DNA of 25,351 bases from Candidatus Cloacimonadota bacterium (GCA_028683635.1 JAQUHL010000001.1:1-25351), one strand, 5' to 3'; counted from the stretch's first letter, positions 2,725 through 25,351 are shown. Made by a program: numbers and translations. Notes: a model not told the origin generated them from the sequence alone.

Positions 2725-2739
2725 AGGGTGCTTTGTCCT

Positions 2740-6998: not shown

Positions 6999-7085
6999 AA
7001 ACAAAATATCCTTGAACACTCCCGGGAGGGCAGACCTCCTCCGCGAGTGCATGGGCTCCTTTTTTTATTTCAGATTTCCTTTGTC

Positions 7086-7159
7086 ATGACATAATTCAAG
7101 CCTACCCACCACCCATAAATGAGTGGAGCGCTGCCCCACACCCAGTTGAATTATGTCAT
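7086..7159. mobile_element. 74-bp mini-element with perfect 14-bp terminal inverted repeats
   Basis: ATGACATAATTCAA (7086-7099) and TTGAATTATGTCAT (7146-7159) enclose a GTGGAGC-GCT-GCCCCAC hairpin. No target duplication was found, so mobility is inferred only. Confidence 0.5.
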
Positions 7160-7236
7160 TTCAATATTAACTCTGTATTGCACAGCTCTCATGCAATTTT
7201 TATGCCTGATCCTGTGAAAACTGGCGTTATCCAATA

Positions 7237-8197: not shown

Positions 8198-8241
8198 AAG
8201 ATATAATCCATACCCATTTGATTATGTCAATCAAGGTTGTA

Positions 8242-11200
8242 TCAGATCTCAATTTTGAGATATCTGCTTTGGGAAGAGGGCGTGTATCCCTTTAGAGCCT
8301 CCAGCTTTCCAGCCAGTTCCAGATAGTTATTCAATTGGTCGGGGGAATGGATGCCACCGGTCTTAAAATCGATGATTTCGAAGATCTTGTTTTGGGTATC
8401 GAGCATGAGGCGATCGAGGCGATATTCTTTGTCCTGATACCAGAAAGAGAATTCGGTGAACACTTTGTTCCAGTGAGGTGCAAAAATATCCTGGGGTAGC
8501 AAGGCTTGCAGGTCATCTGTAAACTTTCGGATCTGAGCTTCCGGAAGGATATAGGAATAGGCTGCCAGGCACTGGCGGTATGCAAATTCCCGCTCTTCGG
8601 GGTCGTTGTGTTTGAGGAAGGAAAGGTAGTGGTGGGCAAGCAGCCCTTTGAGCCGGGCTTTTTCCTCAGAGGCGCATTGTTGCCAGGAGCTTGCAGAGCT
8701 TTCAGGATCAAGCCGGATGCTTCTGGTTTTTCGCCAATCAGCAGGTTCGAGCCGGGGGGTGTCTTCGGTGTTTTTACCTGCTTCCGCCTGGGTTTGACCA
8801 GCATTCTGCCCAATCCCTCCAGTCTGGGAAAACTCCGGCAGGCCTTTCAGGCTTTCATAGTTCTGAAGGCAGTTCTGGCATACGAGCTTGGGGAAGCTGA
8901 GTTTGTCGGGTCCGAGCTCGGAAAAATAGGCTTCCCAATCCTTGGAGCTTTCAAAACAGAAAAAGATATGAAGCTTGGTTTTGGCACGGGTGAAGGCAAC
9001 GTAGAGGATATTGAGTTCTTCCAGATCCTCCTTGTCCTGGGCGAGGCGGGCAAGATGAGCAAAGCTGGAGGACTTAAGCAAGTGTTTGTAATTCAGGGTA
9101 ATGGCATAATCGGCGAGTGCTTCGAGGGTCTGGCCCTGGTATTCAATGAAGCTGCGCAGATAGCGGTCGTTGTCGCTATCCCGGCTGCTGAGATCATAGA
9201 AAACGAAGACTCTGTCATATTCAAGCCCCTTTGCCTTGTGGATGGTCTGCAGCTCAAGATTGGGAGTTGAGCTAAGGGAGCGTTGCCGCATGAATTCCTG
9301 TTTCTGGTTGTCTATCAGATATTTCAGAAAATCAGGAATCCTGGTTTTGCCGCTTTCCAGTTCGAAGGCTGCGGCGATCTCCAGGAAAGCAGAAAGATTC
9401 AGGTAGTCACGTTCCTTGAGGTTTCTATCAGCCAGGCAGGGTTCGATGAATTGGTTGAGTATTTCGGTCATGGTCATTCCAACAACGCTTTTGGCTTTGG
9501 TATAGAGTTCCTGGACGAGGGGCAGCATCGAGAAATCCGGGGGGCTCTTGGGAAGCTCATGAGTATCCGCAGCGTTTTGTTCAGGGATCCGGATCTGGCG
9601 GATAACTTGTTTTAAGGTTTTGGCATTGAGGAGGATATAATCCGAGCGCAGAATCTTTAAGAATTCCATCCAATCTCCGTAGGCCACGAAGGTTAGCCAG
9701 GAAACGAGAGGATGCACGAGGTCATGATCCAAAAGGCTGGCCGAGGGCTGGAAGATATTGGCCACGCCCTTTTCCTCGAGGAGCAATTGGATGATGCCCA
9801 ATTCCTTGGTTTTCCGGCAGAGGATGGCCTGGCTTTCTGCTTCCTTGTTCACGTGGGGAAGCACCATTTCGTTTACGAATTTCTCGAAGGCTGAGTCCTT
9901 GGAAGTTTGGATTTTGCCCCGGGTCTGGAAATTTTGGGAGCGCACTTCAAGCTCGGTCAATAAATCGAGTTTCATGCTTGCTACCGGCTGGTAATGCCAT
10001 TCAAGCTGTCTTTGGCTAAGCAGGTTTTGCAGGGCTTCGCCACCAAAGATACCGTTTATGAAGTCCATCAGACCTACTGAACTCCTCCAGGAGGAAGCGA
10101 GCGTTTCTGTGGAGAAGACCACTCTGCCGGCAAAGATCTTTTCCAGCTTGAGCAGGAGATCTCTTTCCCCTCCCCGCCAGCCGAAGATGGATTGCTTTTC
10201 GTCCCCCACCACAATGAAGCCGCCGAAGGGTTTGGTGCCTTCTCCGGAGAGGACTTCCTCGATTATGGGTTTGAGGATGTTGATTTGGATCAGCGAGGTA
10301 TCCTGGAACTCATCTAACAGGATGAACCTGCTGCGATGGGAGAGAAACTGGTAGAACTCGTTGGCGAGGGCTTCGTTTTCTGCCTTGAAGATGGGTGGGT
10401 TTTCGCTGAACAGGGCCTCGAAAGTGAACCAGGCTATATCATCGTAGGTCATATTTTTGTAACGATAGATCAGGCGGTCATATTCATCGAGGATGAGTTG
10501 CCAGATATCCCGGATTTCTCTCTGCTCGGGAATCTGGAAGGCAAAGATCAGATAATCCGCCAGGGCCTGGAGGAGGCCAGCATATAAATCTTCGAGCCCC
10601 TGGCAGAGATCGGGATAGCTTTTGGCACTGAACTTGTTCCTATCCCAAAATACGTCTTTATTGATGATGCTAAAGAAAGCCCTGCTGCGCCGGGGATTAT
10701 CCATCACCCTGAGCAGGCGTTCGGCAAATTCATCGAAATATTCCCCGCAGCCATCAAGGAAGTCACGTAGCGCCTTTTTAACCAGATCCCTGGGTTCCGG
10801 AAGGGTCTTGCTCGTTTTATTCGGAGTTTCAGCCCTGAGGCGCATCAGTTCCAATATTTGTTTTATGTATTGGATTACCTCCTGGCGCTTCATTTCGGTA
10901 ACTTTTGCAAGTTCGGCATCCGGAAGCGAAGCGAAATCTGCCAGAGTGCTTGCCTGAGTGCCTTTTCCAGGTGGGAAGCTGGCAATCATTCTATATAACC
11001 AGCGGGAATAGATCAGCGAGGCAAAAAAGGAATTGTAATCCTCCAAAGCGGGGCTGATCTTCCTGCGCAGCAAGCTCTTGAGGCTATCCTTGAGATTGGA
11101 TTGCATCAGATGTGCCAAAAGGAAGGGAAGGCGTTTCTGCACGGCCAAAAGATCGATCTCGAAGCTTTCGATGCTGCGCACGGGACGCACCATGTTTCTG

Positions 11201-11604
11201 AATATGGAACTGATATAGGAATCGATGGTCATCACCTGCATCAGATCTTTGTTGCGGGCCAGATCCTGCCTGGCACTGATCAGGATGTTATATTGCTCTT
11301 CTGTAAGCGTTTGGGAGCTGGATCCAAGCCCCAGGATCCGGTTCAAGTTCAGGGTAAGAGCCAGCTTATCCTTACTTGTTTGATCGTCCGTGGCATCAGT
11401 AATGAGAAGCTGCAAATGGCTCAGGATACGGTCCCGGATCTCGGCAGTGGCTTTCCTGGTGAACGTAAGCACCAGGATATTATCCAGCCTGAAATCCGGG
11501 TGTTTGTAATAGCGCAGGAGCAGGATCAGGTATTCGAGAGAGAGCCGGTAGGTCTTTCCGGTTCCGGCACTGGCAGTAATGATCTTGGCAAAGAGATTGG
11601 TCAT
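8242..11604 (-). CDS. addA: AddA/RecB-like UvrD helicase with C-terminal PD-(D/E)XK nuclease
   Basis: ASAGTGKT (Walker A), ILVLTFTRKATAEIRDRI, LLDEFQDTS, VGDEKQSIFGWRGG, QTIHKAKGLEYD, LYVAFTRAK, then RLDRL...IIDFKTG...QLNNY. ATGA overlap with the upstream AddB-like gene. Confidence 0.93.
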   Translation of the reverse strand: MTNLFAKIITASAGTGKTYRLSLEYLILLLRYYKHPDFRLDNILVLTFTRKATAEIRDRILSHLQLLITDATDDQTSKDKLALTLNLNRILGLGSSSQTLTEEQYNILISARQDLARNKDLMQVMTIDSYISSIFRNMVRPVRSIESFEIDLLAVQKRLPFLLAHLMQSNLKDSLKSLLRRKISPALEDYNSFFASLIYSRWLYRMIASFPPGKGTQASTLADFASLPDAELAKVTEMKRQEVIQYIKQILELMRLRAETPNKTSKTLPEPRDLVKKALRDFLDGCGEYFDEFAERLLRVMDNPRRSRAFFSIINKDVFWDRNKFSAKSYPDLCQGLEDLYAGLLQALADYLIFAFQIPEQREIRDIWQLILDEYDRLIYRYKNMTYDDIAWFTFEALFSENPPIFKAENEALANEFYQFLSHRSRFILLDEFQDTSLIQINILKPIIEEVLSGEGTKPFGGFIVVGDEKQSIFGWRGGERDLLLKLEKIFAGRVVFSTETLASSWRSSVGLMDFINGIFGGEALQNLLSQRQLEWHYQPVASMKLDLLTELEVRSQNFQTRGKIQTSKDSAFEKFVNEMVLPHVNKEAESQAILCRKTKELGIIQLLLEEKGVANIFQPSASLLDHDLVHPLVSWLTFVAYGDWMEFLKILRSDYILLNAKTLKQVIRQIRIPEQNAADTHELPKSPPDFSMLPLVQELYTKAKSVVGMTMTEILNQFIEPCLADRNLKERDYLNLSAFLEIAAAFELESGKTRIPDFLKYLIDNQKQEFMRQRSLSSTPNLELQTIHKAKGLEYDRVFVFYDLSSRDSDNDRYLRSFIEYQGQTLEALADYAITLNYKHLLKSSSFAHLARLAQDKEDLEELNILYVAFTRAKTKLHIFFCFESSKDWEAYFSELGPDKLSFPKLVCQNCLQNYESLKGLPEFSQTGGIGQNAGQTQAEAGKNTEDTPRLEPADWRKTRSIRLDPESSASSWQQCASEEKARLKGLLAHHYLSFLKHNDPEEREFAYRQCLAAYSYILPEAQIRKFTDDLQALLPQDIFAPHWNKVFTEFSFWYQDKEYRLDRLMLDTQNKIFEIIDFKTGGIHSPDQLNNYLELAGKLEALKGYTPSSQSRYLKIEI

Positions 11605-14552
11605 GCTTCCTCCTCAGTTTCGACTGGTCCAGAAGTGGCATCCAAACCCAGCATGGAATAGGAAAAGAGATCTGCCCGGGTGATCCGGATTTTATCGTTG
11701 CGGTTGGCAATAGTGCGGGGCAGGAGGAAGCCAAATCTGTGGATGAGTTCCAGTTGAGCAAGCAGTTTGGCAAGGAAAGCTTCCCGTTTTTTGGTGGTGA
11801 TGCCCTGGTTGCTTCCTTCCAGCTCAAAGATCTGGCAAAAACGGGAATCCAGTCGGGACTCAGCCTCTGGATCGTGCAGCAGAAAATATAGGTATTCATA
11901 GAAGATAAGCTGGTTTTCGTGGCCTTTACCAGTCTTGAAATCGATGATAAAGTAGTGTAGCGGAGAATTGATCCTCAGATCCGCCTTTCCCCGGATCATA
12001 AGCTTCACTCCAAGGGAGTTTTCCTGAGGGGGGATCAAGGTCTTGTAGGGTTTTTCTTCGTCTCTCAGGAGGTCTTTTTCGGGCAGAATCTCCAGTTGGC
12101 CGCTAAAACCAGGTTCCAGCGAGGGCAGGTACTCCGTGAAGACCCATTTCACACAGTCCACCAGGTTTTCTGCCATGATTTCCTTCAGGAACTCACGATT
12201 GTGGTTTTTGGGTATCTTATATTGCATCCTGGCTTCATTCAGCAGTTCCAGCAGCTTTTCTTCCAGGCTCTTGCTGTTAATCAGTTTGGAATCCCGAACC
12301 AGGCTATCCGGATGTGCTTCGAGGTAGATGGCAAATACTTTGGAGATGAACCGGTGTTGAAGCTCGCCAAAGAACTTCCTGGAGATCGCTTCTTCGGGAC
12401 AGATGCTCAGTTCCTGGATCCGGGAATAGCTGCTTAAGTACCAGACAAAGGGGTTTTTGAGAAACTGCTCGAGAGCATAGTAGGTGAGCTTCAGTTCTCC
12501 CTGGTTAGCAAAATCCTCTGCCGGATCACAGGGCAGGCTGAAAAACTCCCAGGGGCTATCCTTGCGAACCTTACACAGGCTCGTATCCTGCAGGCTGGAA
12601 GGCAAGCAGGAATCTCTGCCTCCAGCGCTCATCCGCTCCCGGGTGTAAAGCCCCATATACAAAGCTGAAAGGGGCAAAGGAGGCGAGAGAAGCTCATCTA
12701 TCTCAAGCAAACCCTGCTCTGCATAAAGCCTTAGTTCGCTAATGAAGGAACTGGGTTCGATCTCGCTTTCCACATCCCGGTAAGTATAGAGCACGGCTTC
12801 ACGGCTACAAAGCAGCGTTCGGAAGAAATAGTATCTTTCCCAGCGCCGGACATCCTCCCAGGTTTTGAGTCCCAACCTGCCTTTCTGGGTTTCGTTCAAA
12901 AGCCAGACCGCTTCCGCTTTGCCGGGAAGTTCACCTTCGACCAGATGCAAAAAAACCATCTTCCTTAAGTTCAAGTTTCTGCTATCCAGAAGATTGCTAA
13001 GCTGGTAAAGGGGTGGACCGGAAGCCGGGGAAGAGAAGCTAAAACTAAGGCTTTTCAGGTTTTGGGCACACAGACCGATGATGCCTGCGGCGATCTTTTG
13101 GGGTGGAAAGATCAGATCCCAGGAACGGACTATCCCCTGGTTTTCGGCCACGGCAAAGGAAGCCAGCCTGCGGTAAAGCATTGGGTAAAATTCCGTGCCC
13201 AGGAATATATCCTCCGGCACCAAAGCCTTGATCCTGATACCATCCTCCACATCGAGGAGCGAGATCAGATCCGAGATGGAAGCCAGATTCCGGCAACGTT
13301 TCAAAAGCCCGAAATATCGCGAAAGCAGATCCTTCAGCGGTGTATAGAGTTGGGCATCCTCCACCATATCCAGGAGCCTAAGCTCCAGATCCAGATAGAG
13401 ATAGTTTTCCTCGGTGAGTTTGGCCAGGAGCCTGGTTATCCTATCCCTGAGCCCACTATCTGAACCTGGCAAGAAGTAGGAAATGAACCACTCTTCGCAA
13501 CAGAGCTTCTGCAACCCGGCAAGGGGCAAGAGGAGTACCGGCGTGCTGCCAGCAGGACTTTCTTCGATTATGGACTCAAGCTGCGATTCCAGCGCCAGGA
13601 TAAACTGGTAGAGCGGTAATCTGGTTATGGCGATCCTGTCTGTGAGCCCCAGATCTGAGGGTTCGAACCATGCCTGGTAACCGCTTATCAGGAAGTGTTT
13701 GTCAAAGAGTACCGAGGGAGCTTCCGCGGCCTGATTCCGGGTGGCTTTGTCCTCGGGAAATCGGGCCAGAAAGCTAAGCAGCATGGCATCCCGGGAGGCT
13801 TTTTGATCGATGCTGAGCTTACGCAGCCTGTATCGCTTATCCTTGAGCAGGGAAGTCAGCTCCGGTTCCCTAACTTTAAGATTTTGGGTATCAAACCACT
13901 CCTTTTCACCCTGCAGGAGAATCACAATTCCCTTGCCCTGCTCTTCGAGGAAGGAGATCATGCTCTTTTCCAGAGAGGTATAATAATACTGGTTCACAAA
14001 TACGTAATTCGTATATAAGGGAAGAGGATGCAAGGCTTTTGCACCATGGGTAAAAATCCTGTCCTCAAAACCGAGGCCGCCGATAAACTCCCTGTAGCGC
14101 AAGCGGATGGCCAGAACCCTCTGGATGAATTCGATCTGCCAGCCCTGGGCAAAGAACTCAGCTCCGGCCTCAAGATCCTCCAAGCGTTTGAGATCAACTT
14201 CTTCCTCACAGAGTTCAGCAAAAAAGGAAAAGAAATTTCCTCCCCAGGGAATGAGATCGGCATATTCTTCCAGGTGAAAGATCGCTTTGTCCTCGGGTTC
14301 GAGAACCTGATAAAGGGCCAGAAGCCGCTTTTCATCCTGGATCAAGGGTTTATCCGGGGCCAGCATCATGGTTTTGAGATCCTCTATGGCCAGAAATTCC
14401 ACCTGGCAAAGCCCGGTAAGGGGATGGTAGCTCTGGTGCGCAAGCCTGGCTGATTGCCGCGTGGGATACACCATTATGGTACCGTCCTGTATATGCTTGA
14501 GGGATTGCTCCAGGATGTCTTCCCGGAAATCGTGGATAATAATCTTTCTCAT
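11601..14552 (-). CDS. addB: AddB-like subunit (inactive helicase scaffold plus C-terminal PD-(D/E)XK nuclease)
   Basis: ~980 aa, directly upstream of and overlapping addA by 4 nt. C-terminal GKADLRI...IIDFKTG...QLIFY, and no Walker A motif. The start is set at ATG 14552 (MRKIIIHDF, GAGGCGG upstream) rather than 14594. Confidence 0.82.
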   Translation of the reverse strand: MRKIIIHDFREDILEQSLKHIQDGTIMVYPTRQSARLAHQSYHPLTGLCQVEFLAIEDLKTMMLAPDKPLIQDEKRLLALYQVLEPEDKAIFHLEEYADLIPWGGNFFSFFAELCEEEVDLKRLEDLEAGAEFFAQGWQIEFIQRVLAIRLRYREFIGGLGFEDRIFTHGAKALHPLPLYTNYVFVNQYYYTSLEKSMISFLEEQGKGIVILLQGEKEWFDTQNLKVREPELTSLLKDKRYRLRKLSIDQKASRDAMLLSFLARFPEDKATRNQAAEAPSVLFDKHFLISGYQAWFEPSDLGLTDRIAITRLPLYQFILALESQLESIIEESPAGSTPVLLLPLAGLQKLCCEEWFISYFLPGSDSGLRDRITRLLAKLTEENYLYLDLELRLLDMVEDAQLYTPLKDLLSRYFGLLKRCRNLASISDLISLLDVEDGIRIKALVPEDIFLGTEFYPMLYRRLASFAVAENQGIVRSWDLIFPPQKIAAGIIGLCAQNLKSLSFSFSSPASGPPLYQLSNLLDSRNLNLRKMVFLHLVEGELPGKAEAVWLLNETQKGRLGLKTWEDVRRWERYYFFRTLLCSREAVLYTYRDVESEIEPSSFISELRLYAEQGLLEIDELLSPPLPLSALYMGLYTRERMSAGGRDSCLPSSLQDTSLCKVRKDSPWEFFSLPCDPAEDFANQGELKLTYYALEQFLKNPFVWYLSSYSRIQELSICPEEAISRKFFGELQHRFISKVFAIYLEAHPDSLVRDSKLINSKSLEEKLLELLNEARMQYKIPKNHNREFLKEIMAENLVDCVKWVFTEYLPSLEPGFSGQLEILPEKDLLRDEEKPYKTLIPPQENSLGVKLMIRGKADLRINSPLHYFIIDFKTGKGHENQLIFYEYLYFLLHDPEAESRLDSRFCQIFELEGSNQGITTKKREAFLAKLLAQLELIHRFGFLLPRTIANRNDKIRITRADLFSYSMLGLDATSGPVETEEEA

Positions 14553-14671
14553 TTTCCGCCTCGCAGTTTTGTTCCCGATCTGCATGTGTGGCATATTCAG
14601 AACCTGTGCCTATGTGTCAAGTCCGGCTTTGGATCAATTAGAGGGAAACAGCTCATGTTGCTTCAATGTAA

Positions 14672-14901
14672 AAGACCGTTGCACATCCCGAATTATCGAA
14701 ATACAGACTTCCGAATATGCTGGTTGTGAGGTATATTTTTGTATATCTATTCCCGCCCACCACCCTAAAGGAGTAGGGCTTCGCCCTACGACCCATTATT
14801 CAATGGTCTTTGGTTGTGAGGCATATTTTTGTAAATCTATTCCCGCCCACCACCCCAAAAGGAGTAGGGCTTCGCCCTTCAACCCATTATTCAATGCTCT
14901 G
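14672..14901 (+). mobile_element. MITE copy (14672-14810) with tandem duplication of its right half (14811-14901)
   Basis: AAGACCGTTGCA...TTCAATGGTCTT, then TGGTTGTGAGGC...TTCAATGCTCTG. Flanks are TGTAA (14667-71) and TGTAT (14902-06), an imperfect 5-bp target duplication. Confidence 0.8.
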
Positions 14902-15184
14902 TGTATATTCAATTTGCCTGGTTGGTCAACCCGAGTATTCGGGGTGAGATCAGCCATTTTGGCAAAGCCGGAACCCGTAGAGGTTTTTTGCAGGATATGA
15001 GGGAGGGAATGGTAGGAATATAGTGAAGCTTTTATTCTTGGGACGATTTGAAGAAAACACTGGACAGAATCCAAGGGCAAAGGAATTCGTTACCCTGCTT
15101 CCAGAACATACATATATCTGGTTCCATAGCATACACGAGGAGCGTGATTTGCACAAAATGAGGTAAACTGAAAATGGTGAAAGA

Positions 15185-16012
15185 ATGAGCTCAAAGGATT
15201 TGACATTCAGGAGAAAAGAAAGGAAATATATTATTCTGGAGCATGATTTCGAGGAGATAAACCAGGAGCTTCAAGCTCATATTCCAGTTTATCATTTCGA
15301 GGGCAGACCTGCCTTGGTAAACATCGAAACCACATATTTTGATACCGAAGATTTTTTGATCTATAATGAATATCTTGCCCGCAGCAAATTCCGCTTCAAA
15401 ATCCGGATGCGGCGCTATGGATATGAAGGTATCTTCGATCCACAGTATTTGGTTGAAATGAAGATCAATTCCAATTCTCTATCACACAAAAACCGGTTTA
15501 TCCTCCCAGGTGGATTATTTGATAGCTTTGTGGCTGGGGAGGATCTGCGGCCCGAGATCAAGGAAGCAAACCAGAGCCTGATCGGAGCTCAAAAGACCTA
15601 TCGCCTTATCTACAAGCTCCTCAAGATGAACCAGTTAGTACCGGTTTTACAAACTTCCTATTCGAGGATTGCCTATCAGAAGGGTTCCAAAAGGGTACGC
15701 GTAACAGTCGATACGGGCATCACCCACAAGAGTCTGATCGGCAAACCCAGGGAGGCCACTCTCGATGCCCTGGTATTGGAATCCAAGATCATGGGGAAAA
15801 CGCCCAAATGGCACCGGGAGATGGTGAATTCCCTATCGCTATTGAAGCAGCAGCGCTTTTCCAAGTTTGCCACCGGAATCAATTCCCTCTATTTTCCCAA
15901 GCGCGGTAAATACTATTTCTATCACGATGATAGTTCCACAGGGGGAGAGATGTCTTCCAGAATTGTGGAATCCTGTGAACTACTAAAAACTGCCCTGAGA
16001 CTGGGTGATTAA
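15185..16012 (+). CDS. VTC-domain (polyphosphate polymerase, CYTH/TTM tunnel fold) protein
   Basis: RKERKY, TTYFDT, KIRMRRY, EMK, YSRIAY, RVTVD, LESK and FSKF match the motif order of the Vtc4 catalytic domain and of bacterial VTC proteins. The adjacent DUF4956 gene is the usual partner. Confidence 0.88.
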   Translation: MSSKDLTFRRKERKYIILEHDFEEINQELQAHIPVYHFEGRPALVNIETTYFDTEDFLIYNEYLARSKFRFKIRMRRYGYEGIFDPQYLVEMKINSNSLSHKNRFILPGGLFDSFVAGEDLRPEIKEANQSLIGAQKTYRLIYKLLKMNQLVPVLQTSYSRIAYQKGSKRVRVTVDTGITHKSLIGKPREATLDALVLESKIMGKTPKWHREMVNSLSLLKQQRFSKFATGINSLYFPKRGKYYFYHDDSSTGGEMSSRIVESCELLKTALRLGD

Positions 16013-16030
16013 AGAACAAGCGGAGATAAC

Positions 16031-16546
16031 ATGCAGGAACTATATCAGATCATCAAGGATAGCGGTTCCGGAGGAGTAGTCCAATCCCCCCTGCAGATCG
16101 TGCTAAACCTTACCCTTTCCATGCTGTTGGGCTTTTTGTATGCCTATGTTTATAAACTGACCTATATCTGCAGGAAGAAAGACAAAGCAATGAAAGCGGA
16201 GATGGAAAACATCAAATATACTCTGCTGCTTTTGTGCATTGGCGGAGCTTTTATCTGGATCGTGGTGGCAGATAACCTGGTGAGGGCCTTTGGTTTGGCA
16301 GGTGCCTTGAGCCTGATCCGCTTCCGGACTGAGGTGCGGGACCCTTCCAATACAATAAAAGTATTCTTTGCCATCATAATCGGAATGTCCTGCGGGCTGA
16401 GCCAATACTCAGCCGCCATTCTCGGTACCGTTTTCATGTGTTTTGTGCTGACCCTGATCTATCTGATCAACGAGCATAGCCGCAAGCGCAGGAAAGCAAA
16501 CAATGATGAAGAACTTGCTGAATTGGACAAATACTTTGAAGATTAG
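16031..16546 (+). CDS. DUF4956-family membrane protein (about 4 TM, short form)
   Basis: Signature DNLVRAFGLAGALSLIRFRT plus IGMSCG, and four hydrophobic segments. RBS GGAG 6 nt before the ATG; 18 nt downstream of the VTC gene. Confidence 0.85.
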   Translation: MQELYQIIKDSGSGGVVQSPLQIVLNLTLSMLLGFLYAYVYKLTYICRKKDKAMKAEMENIKYTLLLLCIGGAFIWIVVADNLVRAFGLAGALSLIRFRTEVRDPSNTIKVFFAIIIGMSCGLSQYSAAILGTVFMCFVLTLIYLINEHSRKRRKANNDEELAELDKYFED

Positions 16547-17849
16547 GCTGAGCATTCTGTTTTTACTTGTCCTCGGAGGTCTTGGAGCTCAAAGCACCGA
16601 ACTCAGCAGCCTGATGGATTCACTCCTGAAGACCAATACCGAATACCAAAAAGCGCTCAGCCGCTATGAAAGCAAGAAAGCAGTCTCCCTGATCGAAAGA
16701 TCGCTCACCTGGTTTGATATAAATTTTATCTATAAACAATACGAGAACCGCTTCTCCCGGGATGAAATAGAGGATGATACCGAACACTCCAGGGTGCTTG
16801 AAAGGGACAAACGCTGGCGCATTGAACTGGATAAAAACCTCTTCCCCAAAGATTACGACCATGTGAGTGATGCCATCGAAACCAAACTGGCCCTGCTGCG
16901 CTATAAACAAGAACTTAAAATTGCTTATACAGAAAACGCTTTCCTCATTCTGGACGAACTGATTCTCTGGTATGAAGCCGAGAGCATGGCAAAGCTTCTG
17001 CAATCCAGGCTGGATGCCATGTATCAGCAGCAGGAGATATTGGAGGAACTGGACGCAAAAAACCTGATCGATACGGATCTGCTGATCGAAAACCTGGAAC
17101 TGATCGACGATAAGGAACAAAGCCTCAATGAATATCAGAAACTTGCCCTGATCTATAATCGCAAGTATCCGGATATGCTGTTACCCTTCACTGAAGCCAT
17201 GCTGAAATACATCTCAGAAGCCCCGCCTCCGGATACTCTTGCTTTCTGCCAACAGATCGAAAGGGAAAGAGACGCTCTGAACAAGGAGAGTGGAAAACTC
17301 TCGAAAAAGATCAAGGCAAGTTATCTGCACTACTTTATGCCGGAGCTTGATCTCACACTATCATATAACTGGCGGGAAACCAGACAGGATTGGGATATCG
17401 AGAAATCCGGAATATCTAAGACTTCAGACCGCAATCAGGACGAGGCTTTCCCTGAGGGAGAAATCCGGCTTTCCCTGCCCTTTGATCTATACTCTGCTGC
17501 CAAAGGCAAACGCTCCCTGCTCAAAGCCTATGAACGGGAGCTTGATTACCAGGCAGGCGATTTACTCTATGCCTGGCAGAAACTTTCCATGAACCGCATC
17601 CATTCCTACTACCGGGCAATTGAGACCTTAAGCCGCAAAACCCGTCTTCTGCAGCTATACAACAAAGAGCTTAGCCAAAGCCTGGAAAGGCTGGAAACGG
17701 AAACCGACCTGAAGAGCGGTAATCAGGAAACAAAGCTAAGGCAGCTTTCCCTGAAAGCTGCAGAGGCAGAGCTAAAGCTAACTATTGCAAAAATGAAGCT
17801 ATACAAAGAGGTATTCCTCATCAATACCCTTGGTCAGGATCTGAAATGA
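16536..17849 (+). CDS. TolC/OEP-like outer-membrane channel protein (divergent)
   Basis: Signal peptide (LKIRLSILFLLVLGGLGAQ; TTG 16536 preferred, ATG 16503 possible). Long helical segments alternate with OEP-type strands (FMPELDLTLSY, IRLSLPFD), and the C-terminus is LINTLG. It overlaps both neighbours. Confidence 0.68.
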   Translation: MKIRLSILFLLVLGGLGAQSTELSSLMDSLLKTNTEYQKALSRYESKKAVSLIERSLTWFDINFIYKQYENRFSRDEIEDDTEHSRVLERDKRWRIELDKNLFPKDYDHVSDAIETKLALLRYKQELKIAYTENAFLILDELILWYEAESMAKLLQSRLDAMYQQQEILEELDAKNLIDTDLLIENLELIDDKEQSLNEYQKLALIYNRKYPDMLLPFTEAMLKYISEAPPPDTLAFCQQIERERDALNKESGKLSKKIKASYLHYFMPELDLTLSYNWRETRQDWDIEKSGISKTSDRNQDEAFPEGEIRLSLPFDLYSAAKGKRSLLKAYERELDYQAGDLLYAWQKLSMNRIHSYYRAIETLSRKTRLLQLYNKELSQSLERLETETDLKSGNQETKLRQLSLKAAEAELKLTIAKMKLYKEVFLINTLGQDLK

Positions 17850-18949
17850 AAAAGAAGAAAATCCAGTTTGTTCTGATACTTTCTGTAATTGTGATGGCGA
17901 TTTCCGTGGCCGTTTCCTACTTTATTGAAGCTCACACCGTTGTGCTTCCAGCTGTAATACATACAGATAAGGTAGTCCTCAGTTCCGAGGTGGACGGCCT
18001 GCTCAAGAGATATTATGTATCTTCGATGCAAAGCGTCAAAGCCGGAGATCTGATCGCAGAGATCGATAACAACAAACTGCCCGGAATCCTGGAAAACTTA
18101 AAGAAAGAAAAAAGCAAATATGAAGAGCTGATTACCTCAGCAAAAACCGGGGATTTACTCACCAACCAACTTCATGAATTGGACGCAGATCTCCTCGAAT
18201 ATCGGATCAATATGGAGGAATCCAAATCTGATCTGCACAGAATAAATGCTCAGCTAAAGGATTTGGAAGGCAGGCACTCCACTGTTCTAAAGAGATTCGA
18301 GGCCAGCAAACGCATGTATGACAGCGGATTGATGAACAACTCGGACTTCGAAAAGGCCTCAAAAGAATATTGGGATTACAAGGAGAAATACAGTGAACTC
18401 CAGGCTGATTCGCTGATCGCCCGGGAAGTGATTTCGTCCAGCCAAAACCTGATCAATCTGATCAATTCCCGAAAACAGATCCTCACCAAGAGCACAGACG
18501 TTCTGGCTTCCAAACACGTGGTGGATATAAACAAGGTGGAGGCTGAAATCTCCGAACTACAGGCTGAGGTGCAGAGGCTACAGATCTTTGCCCCGATCTC
18601 CGGAATAGTGACAGATATAAACTACAACACCGGTGAACGGGTGGATAAAGGCGATGTCGTTGCCGAACTTGCAGATCTGAGCAATGTCTGGGTAGTAGCT
18701 TACGGCTCCTCGGAAAACCGGCACAGGATAACCATTGGAAACAAGGTACTGATCCAGACCGGCAGCAGAAAAAAAATATGGGGCGAGGTATCAGCAATCT
18801 CACCCATTATGGAAAAGATCCAATCCCTCAGCAGCACATTTGAGACAGTTAACACCTACAATAAAATCGAGATCCAACTGGAGGACCAGCAGGAAGCCCT
18901 GAAATATATCACTCCGGGAGAAAGGCTCTTTGTAAGGATTTTCTTCTGA
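17846..18949 (+). CDS. HlyD/EmrA-type periplasmic adaptor (membrane fusion protein)
   Basis: N-terminal TM anchor. Split lipoyl halves (SSEVDGLL..VKAGDLIAEID and IFAPISGIV..GERVDKGDVVAEL) flank a ~170-aa coiled coil, followed by a beta-barrel ending PGERLFVRIF. ATGA overlap with the TolC-like gene. Confidence 0.88.
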   Translation: MKKKKIQFVLILSVIVMAISVAVSYFIEAHTVVLPAVIHTDKVVLSSEVDGLLKRYYVSSMQSVKAGDLIAEIDNNKLPGILENLKKEKSKYEELITSAKTGDLLTNQLHELDADLLEYRINMEESKSDLHRINAQLKDLEGRHSTVLKRFEASKRMYDSGLMNNSDFEKASKEYWDYKEKYSELQADSLIAREVISSSQNLINLINSRKQILTKSTDVLASKHVVDINKVEAEISELQAEVQRLQIFAPISGIVTDINYNTGERVDKGDVVAELADLSNVWVVAYGSSENRHRITIGNKVLIQTGSRKKIWGEVSAISPIMEKIQSLSSTFETVNTYNKIEIQLEDQQEALKYITPGERLFVRIFF

Positions 18950-19085
18950 AAGACCGTTGCACATCCTGATTTATCGAAATACAGACTTCCAAATATGCTG
19001 GTTGTGAGGCTTTTTTGAATCTATTCCCGCCCACCACCCTAAAAGGAGTAGGGCTTCGCCCTACAACCCATTATTCAGTGGTCTT
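18950..19085 (+). mobile_element. 136-bp MITE, IS5-like ends, 5-bp target duplication
   Basis: Ends are AAGACCGTTGCA and TTCAGTGGTCTT, flanked by TCTGA at 18945-49 and 19086-90. Internal hairpin GTAGGGC-TTC-GCCCTAC. No ORF. Confidence 0.88.
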
Positions 19086-19090
19086 TCTGA

Positions 19091-20581
19091 TCAGAATTGA
19101 AAATAGATAAAGGGCTGGATATCTGAAGCTCGTGCCTGGAACAAAATCCAGATTACCAGGGCAAGCAGAGTGGCTTGCAGGGGAAGCGGTATCTTTTTCA
19201 GTACAGATTCAAAGCCCAGGCTGAACCTGGCTGGCAACCAATGGAAGATAAATCCCAGGAGGATCAGGATCCCCACATTGCGGTACCCTTCTATCCATTG
19301 CCAGAAGAGCGGTGCCTTGAAATGGTTGAAAATCCGATCCAGGATCTGCCAGGAATTGGCAAAACTGCGGGAACGGAAGAAGATCCAGCAAAAGCTTACA
19401 AAGTGGAAAGTAACAATCGTTCCCAGCACTTTCATTACTTTGCTTTGGGATATTTTGAAGGAAAGCCAGATTTTATCGAATGCCAGACCAATCCCATGCA
19501 TAGTTCCCCAAAACACAAAGTTCCAGGATGCACCATGCCAAAGCCCGCCCAACACCATTGTCAGCATCAGGTTCAGATATTGCCTGGCCTTGCCACGACG
19601 GTTACCACCCAGCGGGATATAGAGATAATCCCTCAGCCAGGTGGATAGCGAGATATGCCATCTCCTCCAGAAATCCGTGATGCTGCTGGCAACATAGGGA
19701 GCATTGAAGTTTTGGGGCAATTCAAAACCCATCATCAAGGCCAAACCAATGGCTATATCCGAGTATCCACTGAAATCGCAATAGATCTGAAGCCCATATC
19801 CATAGACAGCAAGCAGATTTTCCACCCCTGAAAAAAGCGCAGGAGCATCAAAGACCCGATCCACAAAATTCACACTGATATAATCCGCTATCACTCCTTT
19901 TTTGAGCAATCCGGCAAAGATCAGGGTCAAAGCCCGGGCCATTACATCCTTGTTCAGTGAAAGCCGGGCATGGATCTGGGGAATGAACCAAGTGGCACGA
20001 ACGATCGGGCCTGCCACGAGCTGCGGGAAAAACGATACGAAAAAGGTGAAATCGAAGAAACTCTTCAGGGGTTTGAGCTTACCGAAATAGATATCGAGGG
20101 TATAGCTCATGGTCTGGAAGGTAAAAAAGGAGATCCCCACCGGGAGGAAGATATCCACCAGCGGAAGTTGACCTCCACTGAGCTGGTTGATGGTATTGAT
20201 CACGAAATTTGTATATTTATAATATCCCAGGGATCCCAGATTCCAGATGATACTGAGCAGCAGCAGTCCCCTTTTGCGAAAAAGCTTTTGGCGCAAAGTG
20301 GCATATTCATCCGTAGCTACCCTGTGGATCCAAGCCCCGATTCCGAAATTTACAAAAGAGGTAAGAATCAGCAACAGCACAAAAACCCCGCTGGTTTTGT
20401 AATAGAAATATAGCGAGAAGAGCATCAGATACCAGGTGCGGACCTTGATCCGGCTCACGATCAGCGGGTAAAAAAACATGATTGCAAGGAAGAAGAAGAG
20501 GAAGAAGACGCTGTTGAAAAGCAAAGGTGATTGCGGATTATAGACCAGGTTTTGCAGGATGTGATCGAGGATGGCTTTCAT
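19091..20581 (-). CDS. MBOAT O-acyltransferase (AlgI/PatA-like)
   Basis: LPVGISFFTFQTMSY, SFFPQLVAGPIVR, YCDFSGYSDIA, FWRRWHISLSTWLRDYLYIPLGGNR, GLWHGASWNF (catalytic His). Confidence 0.93.
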   Translation of the reverse strand: MKAILDHILQNLVYNPQSPLLFNSVFFLFFFLAIMFFYPLIVSRIKVRTWYLMLFSLYFYYKTSGVFVLLLILTSFVNFGIGAWIHRVATDEYATLRQKLFRKRGLLLLSIIWNLGSLGYYKYTNFVINTINQLSGGQLPLVDIFLPVGISFFTFQTMSYTLDIYFGKLKPLKSFFDFTFFVSFFPQLVAGPIVRATWFIPQIHARLSLNKDVMARALTLIFAGLLKKGVIADYISVNFVDRVFDAPALFSGVENLLAVYGYGLQIYCDFSGYSDIAIGLALMMGFELPQNFNAPYVASSITDFWRRWHISLSTWLRDYLYIPLGGNRRGKARQYLNLMLTMVLGGLWHGASWNFVFWGTMHGIGLAFDKIWLSFKISQSKVMKVLGTIVTFHFVSFCWIFFRSRSFANSWQILDRIFNHFKAPLFWQWIEGYRNVGILILLGFIFHWLPARFSLGFESVLKKIPLPLQATLLALVIWILFQARASDIQPFIYFQF

Positions 20582-21894
20582 TATCTTTTCCCCTGGCGTT
20601 GAGCATGAGCGCTATAACCTTTGAGCAGGGCAGAATAGAAAAGCTGCCCCTGCAGCATATATCCCTTGGGTGTGAAATGGATGTTATCCCCGGCAGCCAA
20701 AGCATTTGCCCGCCACTTGCTCACAGATAATACTCCCCCCATCACTTCGCCAAGATCCCACCATGCAGCATTGTTATCCACGGCATATTCGCTGAGCTGT
20801 TTCTCCACTTTTCCCAGGTCGGCATTGTGGATCCCCCCCTTGTGGGAATCGGGAGGCAGGGTATAGATCACCGGGGTGGATTTTGCCGCCTTTTTGAGTC
20901 TTGTGCCAAAGCGCTTGAGGTTGCGCTCGAAATGATCTCCATTGTATCTTCCCTGGGCATCATTGGTCCCCAGAGAGACCACAATCAGATCGGGCTTGAG
21001 GATGGGTATCTGGGCAAAGAAATCATCCATGTTACCATATTTTTCAAAGGTAGCGCCATTGAAGCCCACAGAATGGTAGAGCAGACCCCGGACGTTGTTT
21101 TCCAGCACAATTCCATAGAGATTGGCAATATCCTGGGAATTGGCAGAATTGTATTGGAGCGTGATTTCCCGGGTGGGAGTATTCCATAGCAACTGGTAAA
21201 TTGCCTGTTTCCCAAAGGCTGCGATCTCGATATTGGGTGTCTCGGAATTGCCGGAAAGCGTCCAATCATAGGAATTTTCCTTTTCCTTGGTGATCAGGGT
21301 GATCTTGTTGAAGCTATTATCCAAACCAAAGAAGTTATTGGTCTTGATAGTAAGGTTTCCGCTTTGTTTGGTCCAGAGTCCATAGCCACAGATGCCCTTT
21401 TCGGCATTTGTCCGGTTCCAGTAGCTATTGGAACTGATCCGGATATCGTCCGGCTGGTTGGTTCCGGCAAGTTTCCAGGGGAAGACCAGCCCTCGTCCGG
21501 CATTGCCAAAATACTTCTGCAGCGAGCTCCGGGCTGCTCCGGGGAGGTAACCGGATTGAATATGCGAATCACCAATATGCAAAATGCTCACCCGGGAACG
21601 GAGTCCATAACGCAGTTCGATCAATTTCTGGTAAAAGGGAGCCAGGCTCTTAGCGTCGTTTTGAATGAGATTTTTATCATGATTCAGGAAGGGATAGTTT
21701 TGGGCAAGATCCTGTTTTTCAAAGAGCTTATAATAGCTTTGGATAAATTCTTCCAGGGCATCCAGATCCGAGGGATAAACCTCCTCGGCAGTGCCATCAT
21801 CCATTGCCTGGCTCACGCTAACCAAAGTGAAGGTGAAGAGCACCAGCACCAGGATTATCAGAGGGCATTTTCCTTTCAGAATCCTATCCTTCAC
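20581..21894 (-). CDS. Periplasmic SGNH/GDSL hydrolase (Ape1/PatB-like O-acetyl esterase or transferase)
   Basis: Signal peptide. Blocks LHIGDSHIQ, VGFNGA, SLGTNDA, GDNIHF. One-base overlap with the MBOAT start. Confidence 0.85.
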   Translation of the reverse strand: MKDRILKGKCPLIILVLVLFTFTLVSVSQAMDDGTAEEVYPSDLDALEEFIQSYYKLFEKQDLAQNYPFLNHDKNLIQNDAKSLAPFYQKLIELRYGLRSRVSILHIGDSHIQSGYLPGAARSSLQKYFGNAGRGLVFPWKLAGTNQPDDIRISSNSYWNRTNAEKGICGYGLWTKQSGNLTIKTNNFFGLDNSFNKITLITKEKENSYDWTLSGNSETPNIEIAAFGKQAIYQLLWNTPTREITLQYNSANSQDIANLYGIVLENNVRGLLYHSVGFNGATFEKYGNMDDFFAQIPILKPDLIVVSLGTNDAQGRYNGDHFERNLKRFGTRLKKAAKSTPVIYTLPPDSHKGGIHNADLGKVEKQLSEYAVDNNAAWWDLGEVMGGVLSVSKWRANALAAGDNIHFTPKGYMLQGQLFYSALLKGYSAHAQRQGKR

Positions 21895-23294
21895 TGCTTG
21901 TCCATCAGGTTTTTATAGAGCATATCCGCAATGTGGTTGGCACCGGTGCGGTTGAAATGGGTGTGGTCTTTCTGTGCCAGCGGAGGGTTCCGGTGCACAT
22001 AATCCACCATCGAGTTATAGCCTCCCATCGCCGAAAAGAGATTCCAGAAGGCACAATCGTTTTCGATGGCAATTTCCCCCTGGCTATTGACGAGGATGGG
22101 GATATCCGGCGAAGTGCGGTAACTGCCTTCCAGCTTAATACTTCGATCGTGGGCGGAGATGAGCAGGATCGGTGTTTCCCCCAAAGCTTTTTGGATGTGC
22201 TGAACGGATTGGCTCATGCCCTTTTTATAGTAACTATAGTCTTTCACCTTCGAATTTGATACATTTACGCCATAGTGCAGGATCACGAGGTCATAATCCA
22301 AAAACTTATGAAAATCCCTTAAGCTTTGCTCCCAGATCCGGTTGAAATACATCCCGGAAAAACCCCGGATCGTGTAACTATCCACGTATGCTCCGTTACT
22401 TTGATCCAGCGATACGCCATAGACGTGGATGGGATCCTGGGCATTGAATTCCAGATAGACGTTTTTTACCTGGGCTCCGGAGCTAAGATCCAGCATCTGC
22501 ACTCCCTTGCCCCTCTGCAAGTGATGTTTCTGGCTGGGATTGCCATCCAGAGAGCAGAGAACATAGGATGAATCGCTGGCATTGCTATAGAAGAGCCTGA
22601 TCCTGTCAAACCAGGCAGCGCCTCCCTCAGTATCGACAGCCCGGTATCTTACCCAGGGTGGAGAAGATACATAATTACGCTGAATTTCCGGCTTGGGTTG
22701 CTCTTCAACGGCTGTGCTGTCTGTGACGGCAAGGGTATCGATTTCGGTCTCGATGGCTTTTTCGATGAGATAGTAGCTTCTGGGAATAAAGGTGAACCCG
22801 CTGATCCCCAGGGAGATATCCTGCCTTCTGTTGCTCATGAAAGAGATGGCTTCCCAATTTTTGGCAAAGGTATGGTTTATGGTGGGACGGAAGCCTGCTG
22901 AGATGGAGGTGATCGGCATAAAGCCCAGCCCGGTGCCGCCATACTTTTGCTGTAAGAGGTGCCTGAGCCTTCCGGTTATCAGGTCACCCTCGATGATGGA
23001 ATCTCCAAAATAGGCTATGCGGATGGAACCAGACTGGTTTTTCTCATATTTGGCAAGCTCATTTTGGAAGATTTCGAGGGGAGTAAGTACAGTCTCGATA
23101 TGCAGAGAATCAGCTTTTTGGGAAAGAACCTCATCAATGGAGGGTTTACCCAGCCTTTTCAGGCTATCGAACCAGTGCATTTTTTTGATGGGGAAAAAAC
23201 CTGAATCACTATCCGGAAGCAGCAAGGCTATCGCGCCTAAGATCAGGATAGTACACGCTATTAGGATGAATGGACGCCAGAACGCTCGGTTCAT
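21891..23294 (-). CDS. Membrane-anchored SGNH/GDSL protein (PatB/Ape1-like)
   Basis: N-terminal TM. Blocks YFGDSIIEG, IRGFSG, HYGVN, KDHTHF. ATGA overlap with the next gene. Confidence 0.83.
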   Translation of the reverse strand: MNRAFWRPFILIACTILILGAIALLLPDSDSGFFPIKKMHWFDSLKRLGKPSIDEVLSQKADSLHIETVLTPLEIFQNELAKYEKNQSGSIRIAYFGDSIIEGDLITGRLRHLLQQKYGGTGLGFMPITSISAGFRPTINHTFAKNWEAISFMSNRRQDISLGISGFTFIPRSYYLIEKAIETEIDTLAVTDSTAVEEQPKPEIQRNYVSSPPWVRYRAVDTEGGAAWFDRIRLFYSNASDSSYVLCSLDGNPSQKHHLQRGKGVQMLDLSSGAQVKNVYLEFNAQDPIHVYGVSLDQSNGAYVDSYTIRGFSGMYFNRIWEQSLRDFHKFLDYDLVILHYGVNVSNSKVKDYSYYKKGMSQSVQHIQKALGETPILLISAHDRSIKLEGSYRTSPDIPILVNSQGEIAIENDCAFWNLFSAMGGYNSMVDYVHRNPPLAQKDHTHFNRTGANHIADMLYKNLMDKQ

Positions 23295-23325
23295 TTGATT
23301 TCTTGTTCGCTCGCTTTATTTATAT

Positions 23326-25351
23326 TTAGTCTCCGAAGAGCTCATCGCTTTCCATGGGCAGCGGAGCATCCTGGATGGGGGAGTTTATTTCTGTATGTAT
23401 CATAGATTTGGGAGTATAAAGGCTTTCCACCTTGGGAGAATAGGCCACGATAAATCCGGCAAAAACAATGGAAACCATGCTCATCAGTTTGATGAGAATA
23501 TTGATGCAGGGTCCGGCAGTATCCTTGAAGGGATCACCCACCGTGTCCCCAACAACCGTGGCTTTGTGAACCAGTGAGCCCGAGCCTCCGTGAGTTCCGG
23601 TTTCCACATATTTCTTGGCATTGTCCCAGGCCCCTCCGGCATTGTTCATCATCACGGCCAGCACGAATCCGGTGGTCAGAGATCCGATCAAGAGTCCCAA
23701 CACACCTGCCACCCCGAAGATCAAACCCACCGCCACGGGAGTGATAATACCCATCAGGGCCGGCAAAACCATCTCTCTTTGAGCGCCCTGGGTGGAAATC
23801 TTCACACAGGTGGCATAATCGGGCCTGGCTGTGCCCTGCAGAATCCCGGGTATAGTGGTGAACTGACGCCGCACTTCTTTTACCATCTGCCCGGCAGCGC
23901 GCCCCACGGCTTTGATGGTCAGGGCAGAAAACACAAAAGTCACCATCGCTCCCACAAAGACACCCAACAGGAATTTGGGATTGAGCAGATGGATCTGGTA
24001 ATATTCAATGAAATTTGTCAAGGTGGCTTGAGTTGCGGAGATCGTCTCTGTGAAATGGTTATATTGGATGGTAAGATCTGTCCCCAGCGAGACCAGAGTT
24101 TCTCTCACCTTTTCCAGGTATGCGGCCAGCAGAGCCATCGCCGTGAGCGCAGCAGAGCCAATGGCAAAGCCCTTCCCGATCGCGGCAGTGGTATTCCCCA
24201 CGGCATCGAGATTATCTGTGCGTTCTCTTACTTCCTTGGGAAGGCGGGACATCTGTGCATTTCCCCCGGCGTTATCCGCAATGGGACCAAAAGCATCCAT
24301 TGCCAGCGTTACACCCAGGGTGGCAAGCATTCCCACAGCTCCAAATCCAATGCCATAGAGCCCCATCTCCACTATCTGGAATCCTCCGCTTACTGTGAAG
24401 GCGATCATAATTCCCAACACGATTACCAAAACCGGAGCCAGAGTGGAAAGCATCCCAACCGAAAGCCCTTCCAGAATCACTGTGGCGGATCCATATTCTC
24501 CCTGGCTGGCTATATTGCGGGTGGATTTGTAACTATGCGAAGTGTAGAATTCAGTAAACCATCCGATCAGGATTCCGGCCAGAAGACCTACCACAGTCGA
24601 TAGAAAGACACCCAGGTAAAACTCCCTGGGAAGCAGGAGCCGACAAATAAAGAAAGCACTGATGGCGATCAGGATCGAGCTGAAATGGACGCTTTTGTTC
24701 AGAGCCCGCATCAGATCATTCATCTGGGAATCCTCTTTGGTGGAAACCATGAAAATCCCGATAATCGAGATCAATGCACCCACTCCCGCCAGAATCATGG
24801 GTGCGGTAACAAAATTCATCATCCTGGCCCCAATCTGAGGTGCCTTGGCCATGATCTGCAGGCAAGCACTCATGCCCAGTGCTCCGGTCGCCAGGATCGA
24901 TCCGGCATAGGATTCATAGAGGTCTGCACCCATGCCAGCCACATCGCCCACGTTGTCTCCCACGTTATCCGCAATCGTTGCCGGGTTGCGGGGATCGTCC
25001 TCAGGAATATCGGCTTCGATCTTACCCACCAAATCTGCCCCAACATCTGCAGCTTTGGTATATATCCCTCCGCCCAGACGGGCAAATAAAGCCTGGGAGG
25101 AAGCTCCCATGCCAAAGCTAAGCATTACCACTGCAATCTTTTCCAGGGGATAGTCCGTAAAAGCATTCAACACAAAAAACCAATTTGAGATATCAAAAAG
25201 TGCGAGTCCCACCACAATCAGACCCATAACTCCCCCAGCCCTGAACGCCACCTTCAGGCCCTTGTTCAGGCTTTCCGAACAAGCCTGGGCAGTTCGGCTG
25301 GAAGCCATGGTCGCAGTATTCATCCCAATGAACCCTGCCAATCCGCTCAAG
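23326..25351 (-). CDS. hppA: Membrane-integral ion-translocating pyrophosphatase, K+-dependent type; 5'-truncated
   Basis: [109 protein letters not shown]. The frame runs off the right edge. Confidence 0.96.

Follow-up and report, generated by a model that had tools for sequence, protein, structure and literature searches.

Why would a gene related to the polyphosphate-making yeast protein Vtc4 share a cassette with a periplasmic adaptor and an outer-membrane channel, in the place where a pump would stand? This question is raised by a four-gene cassette at positions 15185-18949 of a 25,351-nt stretch of DNA (the window) from Candidatus Cloacimonadota bacterium (GCA_028683635.1 JAQUHL010000001.1:1-25351), which belongs to a metagenome-assembled genome of 2.06 Mb, 343 contigs and 74% completeness. 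The genes, nearly abutting and all on the + strand, encode a VTC-domain protein, a DUF4956 protein, a predicted TolC-fold outer-membrane factor (OMF) and an EmrA-like membrane-fusion protein (MFP), the periplasmic adaptor. The data lean slightly towards a model in which the four genes form one module that makes polyphosphate and passes it out through the envelope, as a conduit driven by a polymerase. To our knowledge, no route by which bacteria export polyphosphate is known, and the cassette thereby provides a concrete, clonable candidate for one.

Parts and junctions of the cassette

An initial annotation, made from the sequence alone, had described four co-directional genes joined by an 18-nt gap, a stop/start overlap and an ATGA overlap, bounded by a divergent and a convergent gene and lacking an ABC, RND or MFS transporter. 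The coordinates of the open reading frames (ORFs) agree with the shared direction, the 18-nt gap between VTC and DUF4956 and the ATGA overlap of the OMF and MFP genes at 17846-17849. Genes 2 and 3 do overlap, but by more than the 1-4 nt of a stop/start junction: by 44 nt from the ATG at 16503, or by 11 nt from the TTG at 16536, a start that gives 437 aa, in agreement with the 436-439 aa of most homologues. An AddB-like gene indeed diverges upstream and an MBOAT gene converges downstream (Table 1), no ORF of at least 150 aa in the 25-kb window matches the ABC, RND or MFS families, and the sole membrane transporter among the window's ORFs is an H+/Na+-pyrophosphatase. Pfam matches above their cut-offs bear out the VTC, DUF4956 and HlyD-like identities. 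The cassette is not an assembly join, because a single 4113-nt unitig spans 14867-18979 in the likely source metagenome, with flanks that join at high-copy repeats; the three read sets used for it, labelled metatranscriptomic and probably DNA, are silent on transcription.

The product of the first gene, P0001, matches PF09359 with 137.5 bits (cut-off 23) over residues 10-236 and aligns by HMMER to the catalytic domain of yeast Vtc4 (3g3q, E 6e-8). In this alignment, K14 pairs with the lysine of the Vtc4 motif TTKYW and R74/R76 with the arginines of RLR, followed by E91/K93, K102/R104, Y159/R161, R172/D176, E199/K201 and S226/K227. The catalytic residues named in the initial annotation are therefore present, and they are also kept: in an alignment of 50 representatives, drawn from 1097 matches at E <=0.001 in a library of 1.8 billion proteins, every tunnel-paired position is either invariant or conserved in no less than 90% of the sequences, with R74, K93, R104, R161, E199, K201, S226 and K227 identical in 50/50 sequences. 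PF09359 is the sole Pfam match of P0001, with no SPX, membrane or fused DUF202 domain found in it. A DUF202 fusion was seen only in long eukaryote-type VTC homologues (4 of the 10 long homologues checked), and none of those ten is fused to DUF4956. Judged from its sequence, P0001 would be a soluble, Vtc4-like triphosphate-tunnel enzyme and a candidate polyphosphate polymerase, with polymerization as its predicted activity.

The second protein, P0002, scores 44.4 bits against DUF4956 (PF16316; cut-off 30.6) and, over the same stretch, 34.6 bits against MgtC (PF02308; cut-off 31.4), and the clusters that resemble it in the Atlas are those of DUF4956. Read by eye, the sequence shows about five hydrophobic helices, cytoplasmic loops of basic character and a C-terminal tail that is short and charged. 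The core LIRFRTxV(K/R)DP...G(M/L)xxG is kept in 33 orthologues from three phyla, with R97 invariant; a profile of the family found no match among PDB sequences. P0002 is as such a candidate membrane partner or translocator, and its conserved arginines may line the path of a polyanion.

Labelling gene 3 as TolC-like had found no footing in sequence comparison: P0003 matches no Pfam or NCBIfam model at E <=0.01, the outer-membrane efflux model OEP (PF02321) included, and no PDB sequence at E <=10. The label holds on the predicted fold. P0003 carries a signal peptide that lacks a lipobox cysteine, and its AF2 monomer model (mean predicted local distance difference test score, pLDDT, 83.2) contains a twice-repeated beta-hairpin (strands within 73-112 and 281-324) and helices as long as 69 residues. 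The top 39 PDB matches of this model in Foldseek are all chains of the TolC/OprM/CusC type (E 2e-13, about 440 columns, full length), which confirms P0003, at the level of the model, as a TolC-fold outer-membrane factor. In one sister locus, the TolC-like gene is broken by a TGA in an otherwise intact cassette (L022, 9363-10684, equal to G025:C2:262400-263697) and may be a pseudogene.

The adaptor, P0004, is recognized by HlyD_3 (61.8 bits, cut-off 22.2), HlyD_D23 (58.5, cut-off 30) and Biotin_lipoyl_2 (38.2), and the NCBIfam EmrA/EmrK model aligns to its residues 3-320 under the cut-off. The best PDB match of the MFP profile is EmrA (4tko, E 9e-12, residues 38-321). Its layout comprises an N-terminal anchor helix (hydrophobic residues 7-27, as read from the sequence), a lipoyl domain split by a helical hairpin of about 170 residues and a beta-barrel, with no candidate membrane-proximal domain after the barrel. 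EmrA itself serves a pump that has no periplasmic domain. The homologues returned by word-based searches with the window's OMF and MFP and with the OMF of genome G086, described below, all lie within Cloacimonadota.

Linkage across phyla and a change of synthase

Is this arrangement more than an accident of one contig? Another 11 Cloacimonadota loci (10 species-representative contigs and one genome) share the order VTC-DUF4956-OMF-MFP; their VTC identity ranges from 41 to 68%, and their flanks are unrelated apart from CotH-type secreted proteins. No ABC, RND or MFS pump gene recurs in the flanks of the 12 related loci. In an even sample of 121 Cloacimonadota genomes, VTC, DUF4956 and the TolC-like family each occur in 12, and all three occur together in 10, of which nine have them side by side on a single contig and the tenth has them divided over contig ends. 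DUF4956 accompanies the TolC-like gene in 11 of its 12 genomes, and all 12 DUF4956 genes adjoin a polyphosphate synthase gene. The module thus counts as accessory: about 10% of genomes, from several families, have it, and it is inherited or lost as a unit.

The sole cassette without VTC is the most informative. In G086, a complete genome on one contig, a single strand carries PPK1-NUDIX-DUF4956-OMF-MFP (L065, G086:C1:14000-32000, at 5800-11681); its DUF4956, MFP and OMF proteins are 60%, 38% and 25% identical to those of the window, and neither VTC nor a remnant of it was found in the genome. The PPK1 has 679 aa and all four PPK1 domains. None of the other 120 sampled genomes yielded a PPK1, and PPK2 was found neither in G086 nor in five cassette-bearing genomes, so that most of Cloacimonadota may lack both classical polyphosphate kinases (PPK2 having been checked in these six genomes). 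VTC and PPK1 differ in fold and have polyphosphate synthesis in common, and it is very unlikely that PPK1 lies by chance two genes from the only VTC-less cassette, although this displacement was framed as a test after the data had been seen. Because two unrelated synthases occupy one slot, the role of VTC would be polyphosphate synthesis, with DUF4956-OMF-MFP handling the product. The exchange argues, as the best evidence available, that polyphosphate is the module's business, and together with the conserved catalytic set it agrees with the initial annotation in making polyphosphate synthesis the relevant predicted activity of gene 1. It also constitutes a natural experiment, in which one DUF4956-OMF-MFP trio is paired with two unrelated synthases and can be tested with either.

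The linkage extends beyond the phylum. A locus search with a three-sequence VTC alignment returned Cloacimonadota and one Bdellovibrionales locus only. Among 201 Bdellovibrionota genomes, VTC occurs in 32, and all 27 genomes with DUF4956 are among these; save in two fragmented assemblies, both genes lie on the same contig within about 4 kb. VTC and DUF4956 are thus an obligate pair. About 19 of the 36 Bdellovibrionota loci encode DUF4956, a 590-aa HlyD-like protein with a barrel-sandwich N-terminus, a protein of about 386-390 aa and VTC, and about 8 of the 36 have the order DUF4956-CotH-VTC. The protein of about 386-390 aa is silent in Pfam in most loci, with one orthologue reaching 26.5 bits on OEP, and the top 43 PDB matches of its model (pLDDT 83) are all outer-membrane factors. 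Profile-profile comparison found no similarity between this family and the OMF family of the window, the shared fold being seen by structure prediction only. Going by these models, the same four functions appear to recur in Bdellovibrionota in another gene order and with very different adaptor and channel sequences. In all, the linkage that the initial annotation proposed holds beyond close relatives, unchanged in order within Cloacimonadota and rearranged in Bdellovibrionota.

One further Bdellovibrionota locus (L050, G282:C116) has VTC without DUF4956, followed by genes for OEP, HlyD and a 650-aa protein that clusters with ABC ATPases. Together, the last three would make up a conventional pump beside VTC, the Pfam scan having covered OEP and HlyD.

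Elsewhere, the outer-membrane part changes in kind. Among seven further metagenomic VTC loci, three unrelated ones have the order VTC-DUF4956-porin-like protein-CotH; of the remaining four, one has CotH after the pair and three end at or near a contig end. The porin-like protein, of about 340 aa, is borderline against Porin_O_P (PF07396), with 22.9, 20.0 and 17.7 bits at a cut-off of 20.9, and its Atlas feature scores are 0.97 to clusters that are 99-100% Porin_O_P; its profile found no match among PDB sequences. PF07396 contains the phosphate- and pyrophosphate-selective porins OprP and OprO, and kin of this family take the place of MFP and OMF in sister VTC-DUF4956 loci, though not in the window. 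A porin-family partner in these loci agrees with the passage of a phosphate-based anion through the outer membrane.

CotH is the other recurrent companion. A CotH protein bearing a lamin-tail domain and a sorting signal for type IX secretion adjoins the cassette in six loci (L003, L020, L021, where it stands on both sides, L023, L025 and L026), and CotH occurs in 13/13 genomes of the sample in which DUF4956 or the OMF-like gene is present. The window lacks a CotH gene; three, all with signal peptides, lie on other contigs of its genome. In another Cloacimonadota locus (L067, G017:C1:1027000-1043000), DUF4956, an 887-aa CotH and VTC (6020-10022) lie in a polysaccharide biosynthesis cluster, with GDP-mannose dehydratase, DegT aminotransferase, EpsG and GT4 as neighbours.

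Proposed conduit and competing explanations

How does the cassette compare with systems that are already understood? In eukaryotes, the VTC complex (Vtc4/Vtc3/Vtc1; 3g3q, 7ytj, 8i6v) couples polyphosphate synthesis to its own membrane channel (PMC9911596; 10.1101/2023.01.27.525886). The cassette shares with it a homologous catalytic domain, the tunnel Lys, Arg, Glu and Ser residues and the pairing of the enzyme with a small multi-helix membrane protein. In contrast to the eukaryotic complex, it has no SPX domain, its membrane part is a separate DUF4956/MgtC-like protein instead of a fused DUF202 three-helix domain, and it would be aimed at the cell envelope, not the vacuole, with an adaptor and an outer-membrane channel added. 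Closer in gene content are the pel loci of Gram-positive bacteria, in which cotH, a polyphosphate polymerase and DUF4956 form a conserved accessory set (10.1101/768473 = PMC7112168). In S. intermedius (SIR_1592-1594), mutating either the MgtC-like protein or CotH lowers Pel-dependent aggregation (PMC12345266), and this trio should therefore act on extracellular material. The VTC-DUF4956 pair and the tie to a secreted CotH kinase are common to both settings, whereas the pel organisms are one-membraned and lack an adaptor and an outer-membrane channel, the publications propose no export, and CotH is not adjacent in the window.

From tripartite efflux systems (EmrAB-TolC, 4tko and 8zar; MacAB-TolC; HlyBD-TolC), the cassette has the anchored adaptor of lipoyl, hairpin and barrel domains and the TolC protomer fold. 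It differs from them in that no MFS, ABC or RND gene lies in the window or the conserved neighbourhood, that its OMF is too divergent for the Pfam OEP model, and that its only inner-membrane candidates are the polymerase and the 171-aa MgtC-like protein. In synthase-dependent secretion (alginate, cellulose Bcs, PNAG Pga), an inner-membrane polymerase feeds the growing chain into an exit through the envelope, and alginate's Alg44 has an MFP-like domain in the periplasm. The logic proposed for the cassette, a polymerase feeding an envelope-spanning exit, resembles Alg8/Alg44/AlgK/AlgE in function only, given that polymer and enzyme family differ and that the cassette has no glycosyltransferase, PilZ domain, tetratricopeptide-repeat scaffold or beta-barrel porin of that kind. 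Its parts are thus of known kinds, and their combination with a polymerase in the pump's place is not described in the literature searched, in which neither an adaptor, TolC-like channel or porin together with VTC/DUF4956/CotH genes nor a bacterial polyphosphate exporter was found.

The available data favour, by a small margin, a model in which VTC, or PPK1 in its stead, would polymerize phosphate from ATP on the cytoplasmic face. DUF4956, as the obligate partner, would anchor the synthase and most likely provide the chain's route over the inner membrane. The EmrA-like adaptor, whose one-helix anchor would suit a partner without a periplasmic domain, would then bridge the periplasm to the TolC-fold channel, from which polyphosphate could be released at the surface. 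In other lineages, a phosphate-type porin may serve as the outer exit, and single-membraned bacteria would need none. Secreted CotH-family kinases would be likely users or companions of the polymer at the surface. A more specific version, in which a polymerase on DUF4956 drives dedicated polyphosphate secretion through MFP/TolC or a porin and the product is the phosphoryl donor or cofactor of the CotH kinases, strikes us as rather improbable; if true, it would explain how these kinases act outside the cell, where ATP is absent.

Several observations weigh against a polymerase-driven conduit. On a single metagenomic contig (L005/L006), OMF and MFP follow two TldD/PmbA genes with neither VTC nor DUF4956 beside them, so that the pair can persist alone or serve a partner encoded elsewhere. 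It is a counter-example of the sort that the initial annotation had listed as speaking against its reading, yet no pump adjoins the pair there either, and because its MFP nests within the VTC-linked clade, the lone pair should be a derived state. The co-occurrence counts overstate the support, since kin are not independent, and the PPK1 case is one lineage seen in two near-identical genomes, with a 379-nt gap parting PPK1-NUDIX from DUF4956, across which a shared transcript is only presumable. CotH also occurs in 36 of the 108 remaining sampled genomes, which lack the cassette. A co-fold of VTC, DUF4956 and MFP, run without controls, scored 0.08 against a mark of 0.32 and speaks neither for nor against binding, leaving the DUF4956-adaptor contact without support of its own, and the literature yielded no measured activity, transport or contact for a bacterial VTC or DUF4956 protein.

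What else might the four genes do? The adaptor and channel might serve an MFS, ABC or RND pump encoded elsewhere and stand beside VTC-DUF4956 through co-regulation or co-inheritance. The adaptor is ordinary and EmrA-like by sequence, the lone pair and the Bdellovibrionota locus with VTC beside an OEP-HlyD-ABC set point the same way, and a partner pump could lie in the missing part of a genome that is 74% complete. We nevertheless regard this as quite unlikely, because the DUF4956 and OMF genes overlap, as do the OMF and MFP genes, because the OMF family follows DUF4956 through a small subset of genomes, unlike the parts of a housekeeping pump, and because the flanks of the 12 loci hold no conserved pump gene. 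The linkage has, moreover, outlived replacement of the synthase and recurs in Bdellovibrionota with unrelated MFP and OMF sequences in another order. Alternatively, polyphosphate might be moved only as far as the membrane or periplasm, as a chelator or energy source, and what the duct exports might be metals, complexes of cations with polyphosphate, or a different anion. The MgtC family is linked to the homeostasis of Mg2+ and phosphate and not to polymer transport (as summarized in PMC12345266), EmrA-, CusB- and CzcB-type NCBIfam models all match the adaptor weakly without reaching a subfamily cut-off, and polyphosphate is a putative cargo of the duct. Against such a different cargo, the conserved neighbours of the cassette in the related loci include no metal-binding, P-type ATPase, CDF or RND gene, the duct can be swapped for a protein of a phosphate-selective porin family, and a polyphosphate synthase is the one constant partner, which makes this explanation unlikely.

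VTC may also not be a polymerase at all, acting instead as a tripolyphosphatase or NTPase that regulates or energizes a DUF4956-based transporter of another cargo. The triphosphate tunnel metalloenzyme superfamily includes VTC, and most of its members hydrolyse. Bacterial VTC proteins have a glutamate (E12) two residues ahead of the catalytic lysine where yeast Vtc4 has threonine, and the literature search found no assay of a bacterial VTC. On the other side stand the conserved residues that pair with the Vtc4 polymerase set and the four-domain PPK1 in the G086 slot, which shares with Vtc4 polyphosphate synthesis and neither fold nor hydrolase chemistry; hydrolysis is accordingly the explanation we find hardest to credit. 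For the favoured polymerase-driven conduit, every step (polymerization by VTC, translocation by DUF4956, its contact with the adaptor, export and use of the polymer by CotH) is inferred.

If the model is true, it would give the VTC fold its first function in bacteria and DUF4956 its first function of any kind, with a clue to the MgtC membrane domain, and would supply the first envelope-spanning MFP/TolC assembly run by a polymerase and not by a pump. To what was known, the present analysis adds the Cloacimonadota form of the module, the Bdellovibrionota check, the VTC-to-PPK1 displacement, the type IX-secreted CotH neighbours and the porin variant. The CotH link suggests a possible use for extracellular polyphosphate, and some bacteria do release the polymer, which affects host cells (PMC10653871, PMC12772234). 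Homologues of the window's sequence assign it to Cloacimonadota. Sequence nearly identical to that of the window occurs in bioreactor, landfill, wastewater, manure and digester metagenomes; anaerobic digesters, landfill and wastewater, in which the host is often met, are settings where phosphorus cycling matters practically.

Surroundings of the cassette

Table 1. Coordinates of the cassette, of its flanks in the window and of the porin-like genes in sister loci.
Feature	Position	Strand	Length	Basis or remark
VTC-domain protein P0001	15185-16012	+	275 aa	Pfam PF09359
DUF4956/MgtC-like inner-membrane protein P0002	16031-16546	+	171 aa	PF16316 and PF02308
TolC-fold outer-membrane factor P0003	16503-17849	+	448 aa (ATG 16503) or 437 aa (TTG 16536)	predicted fold
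EmrA-like membrane-fusion (periplasmic adaptor) protein P0004	17846-18949	+	367 aa	HlyD_3, HlyD_D23, Biotin_lipoyl_2
Leader and presumed promoter region of the cassette	14901-15184	+		inferred
AddAB-type helicase-nuclease pair, divergent, upstream of the cassette	8242-14594 (AddB-like gene 11601-14594)	-		
MBOAT/GDSL/GDSL/H+-pyrophosphatase block, convergent, downstream of the cassette	19091-25350 (MBOAT gene 19091-20581)	-		
Dispersed repeat, upstream copies	14671-14809 and partial 14811-14900		~138 nt (14671-14809)	marks edge of cassette unitig
Dispersed repeat, downstream copy	18949-19084			begins at last base of MFP stop codon
Porin_O_P-like protein between DUF4956 and CotH	L068 1385-2407; L069 6184-7203; L070 7497-8528		~340 aa	

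Rfam and tRNA scans of the window returned no match, and a sigma-70 promoter scan found no more sites in it than in shuffled sequence, with a consensus ill-suited to Cloacimonadota. On the downstream side, the MBOAT protein (DltB/AlgI-like) and two GDSL/SGNH proteins (19091-23294, - strand) resemble a polysaccharide or teichoic-acid O-acylation module, and a membrane H+/Na+-translocating pyrophosphatase (23326-25350, - strand), cut off by the window's end, is another phosphoanhydride enzyme nearby. Neither the acylation module nor the pyrophosphatase is kept beside the cassette at other loci. Further away, the window encodes a secreted endonuclease I with fn3 domains (178-2130, + strand) and a 918-aa protein (4296-7052, - strand) whose type IX sorting tail indicates that the host has a type IX secretion system.

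The cassette is flanked by direct repeats of about 136 nt, which might have been taken for the borders of a mobile cassette. This is ruled out by their abundance: the repeat, a genome-wide element of about 138 nt that does not belong to the module, gives 210 blastn matches across 116 of 343 contigs, and its words reach 50-100x the depth of single-copy sequence in the likely source metagenome. It has no match in Rfam, looks like a very high-copy element of the repetitive extragenic palindrome (REP) or miniature inverted-repeat transposable element (MITE) kind, and probably accounts for the fragmentation of the assembly. Its palindromic hairpin, GTAGGGC-TTC-GCCCTAC at 19048-19064, is a possible two-way terminator between the convergent genes. 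Further copies in the window lie at 8059-8196, 7562-7672, 7236-7303, 3777-3844, 3490-3576, 3075-3142 and 2788-2874. The gene-free blocks at 2650-4290 and 7050-8240 are mosaics of several short repeat families, and the first of them contains a 702-nt duplication, in which 2852-3151 and 3554-3853 are 97% identical.

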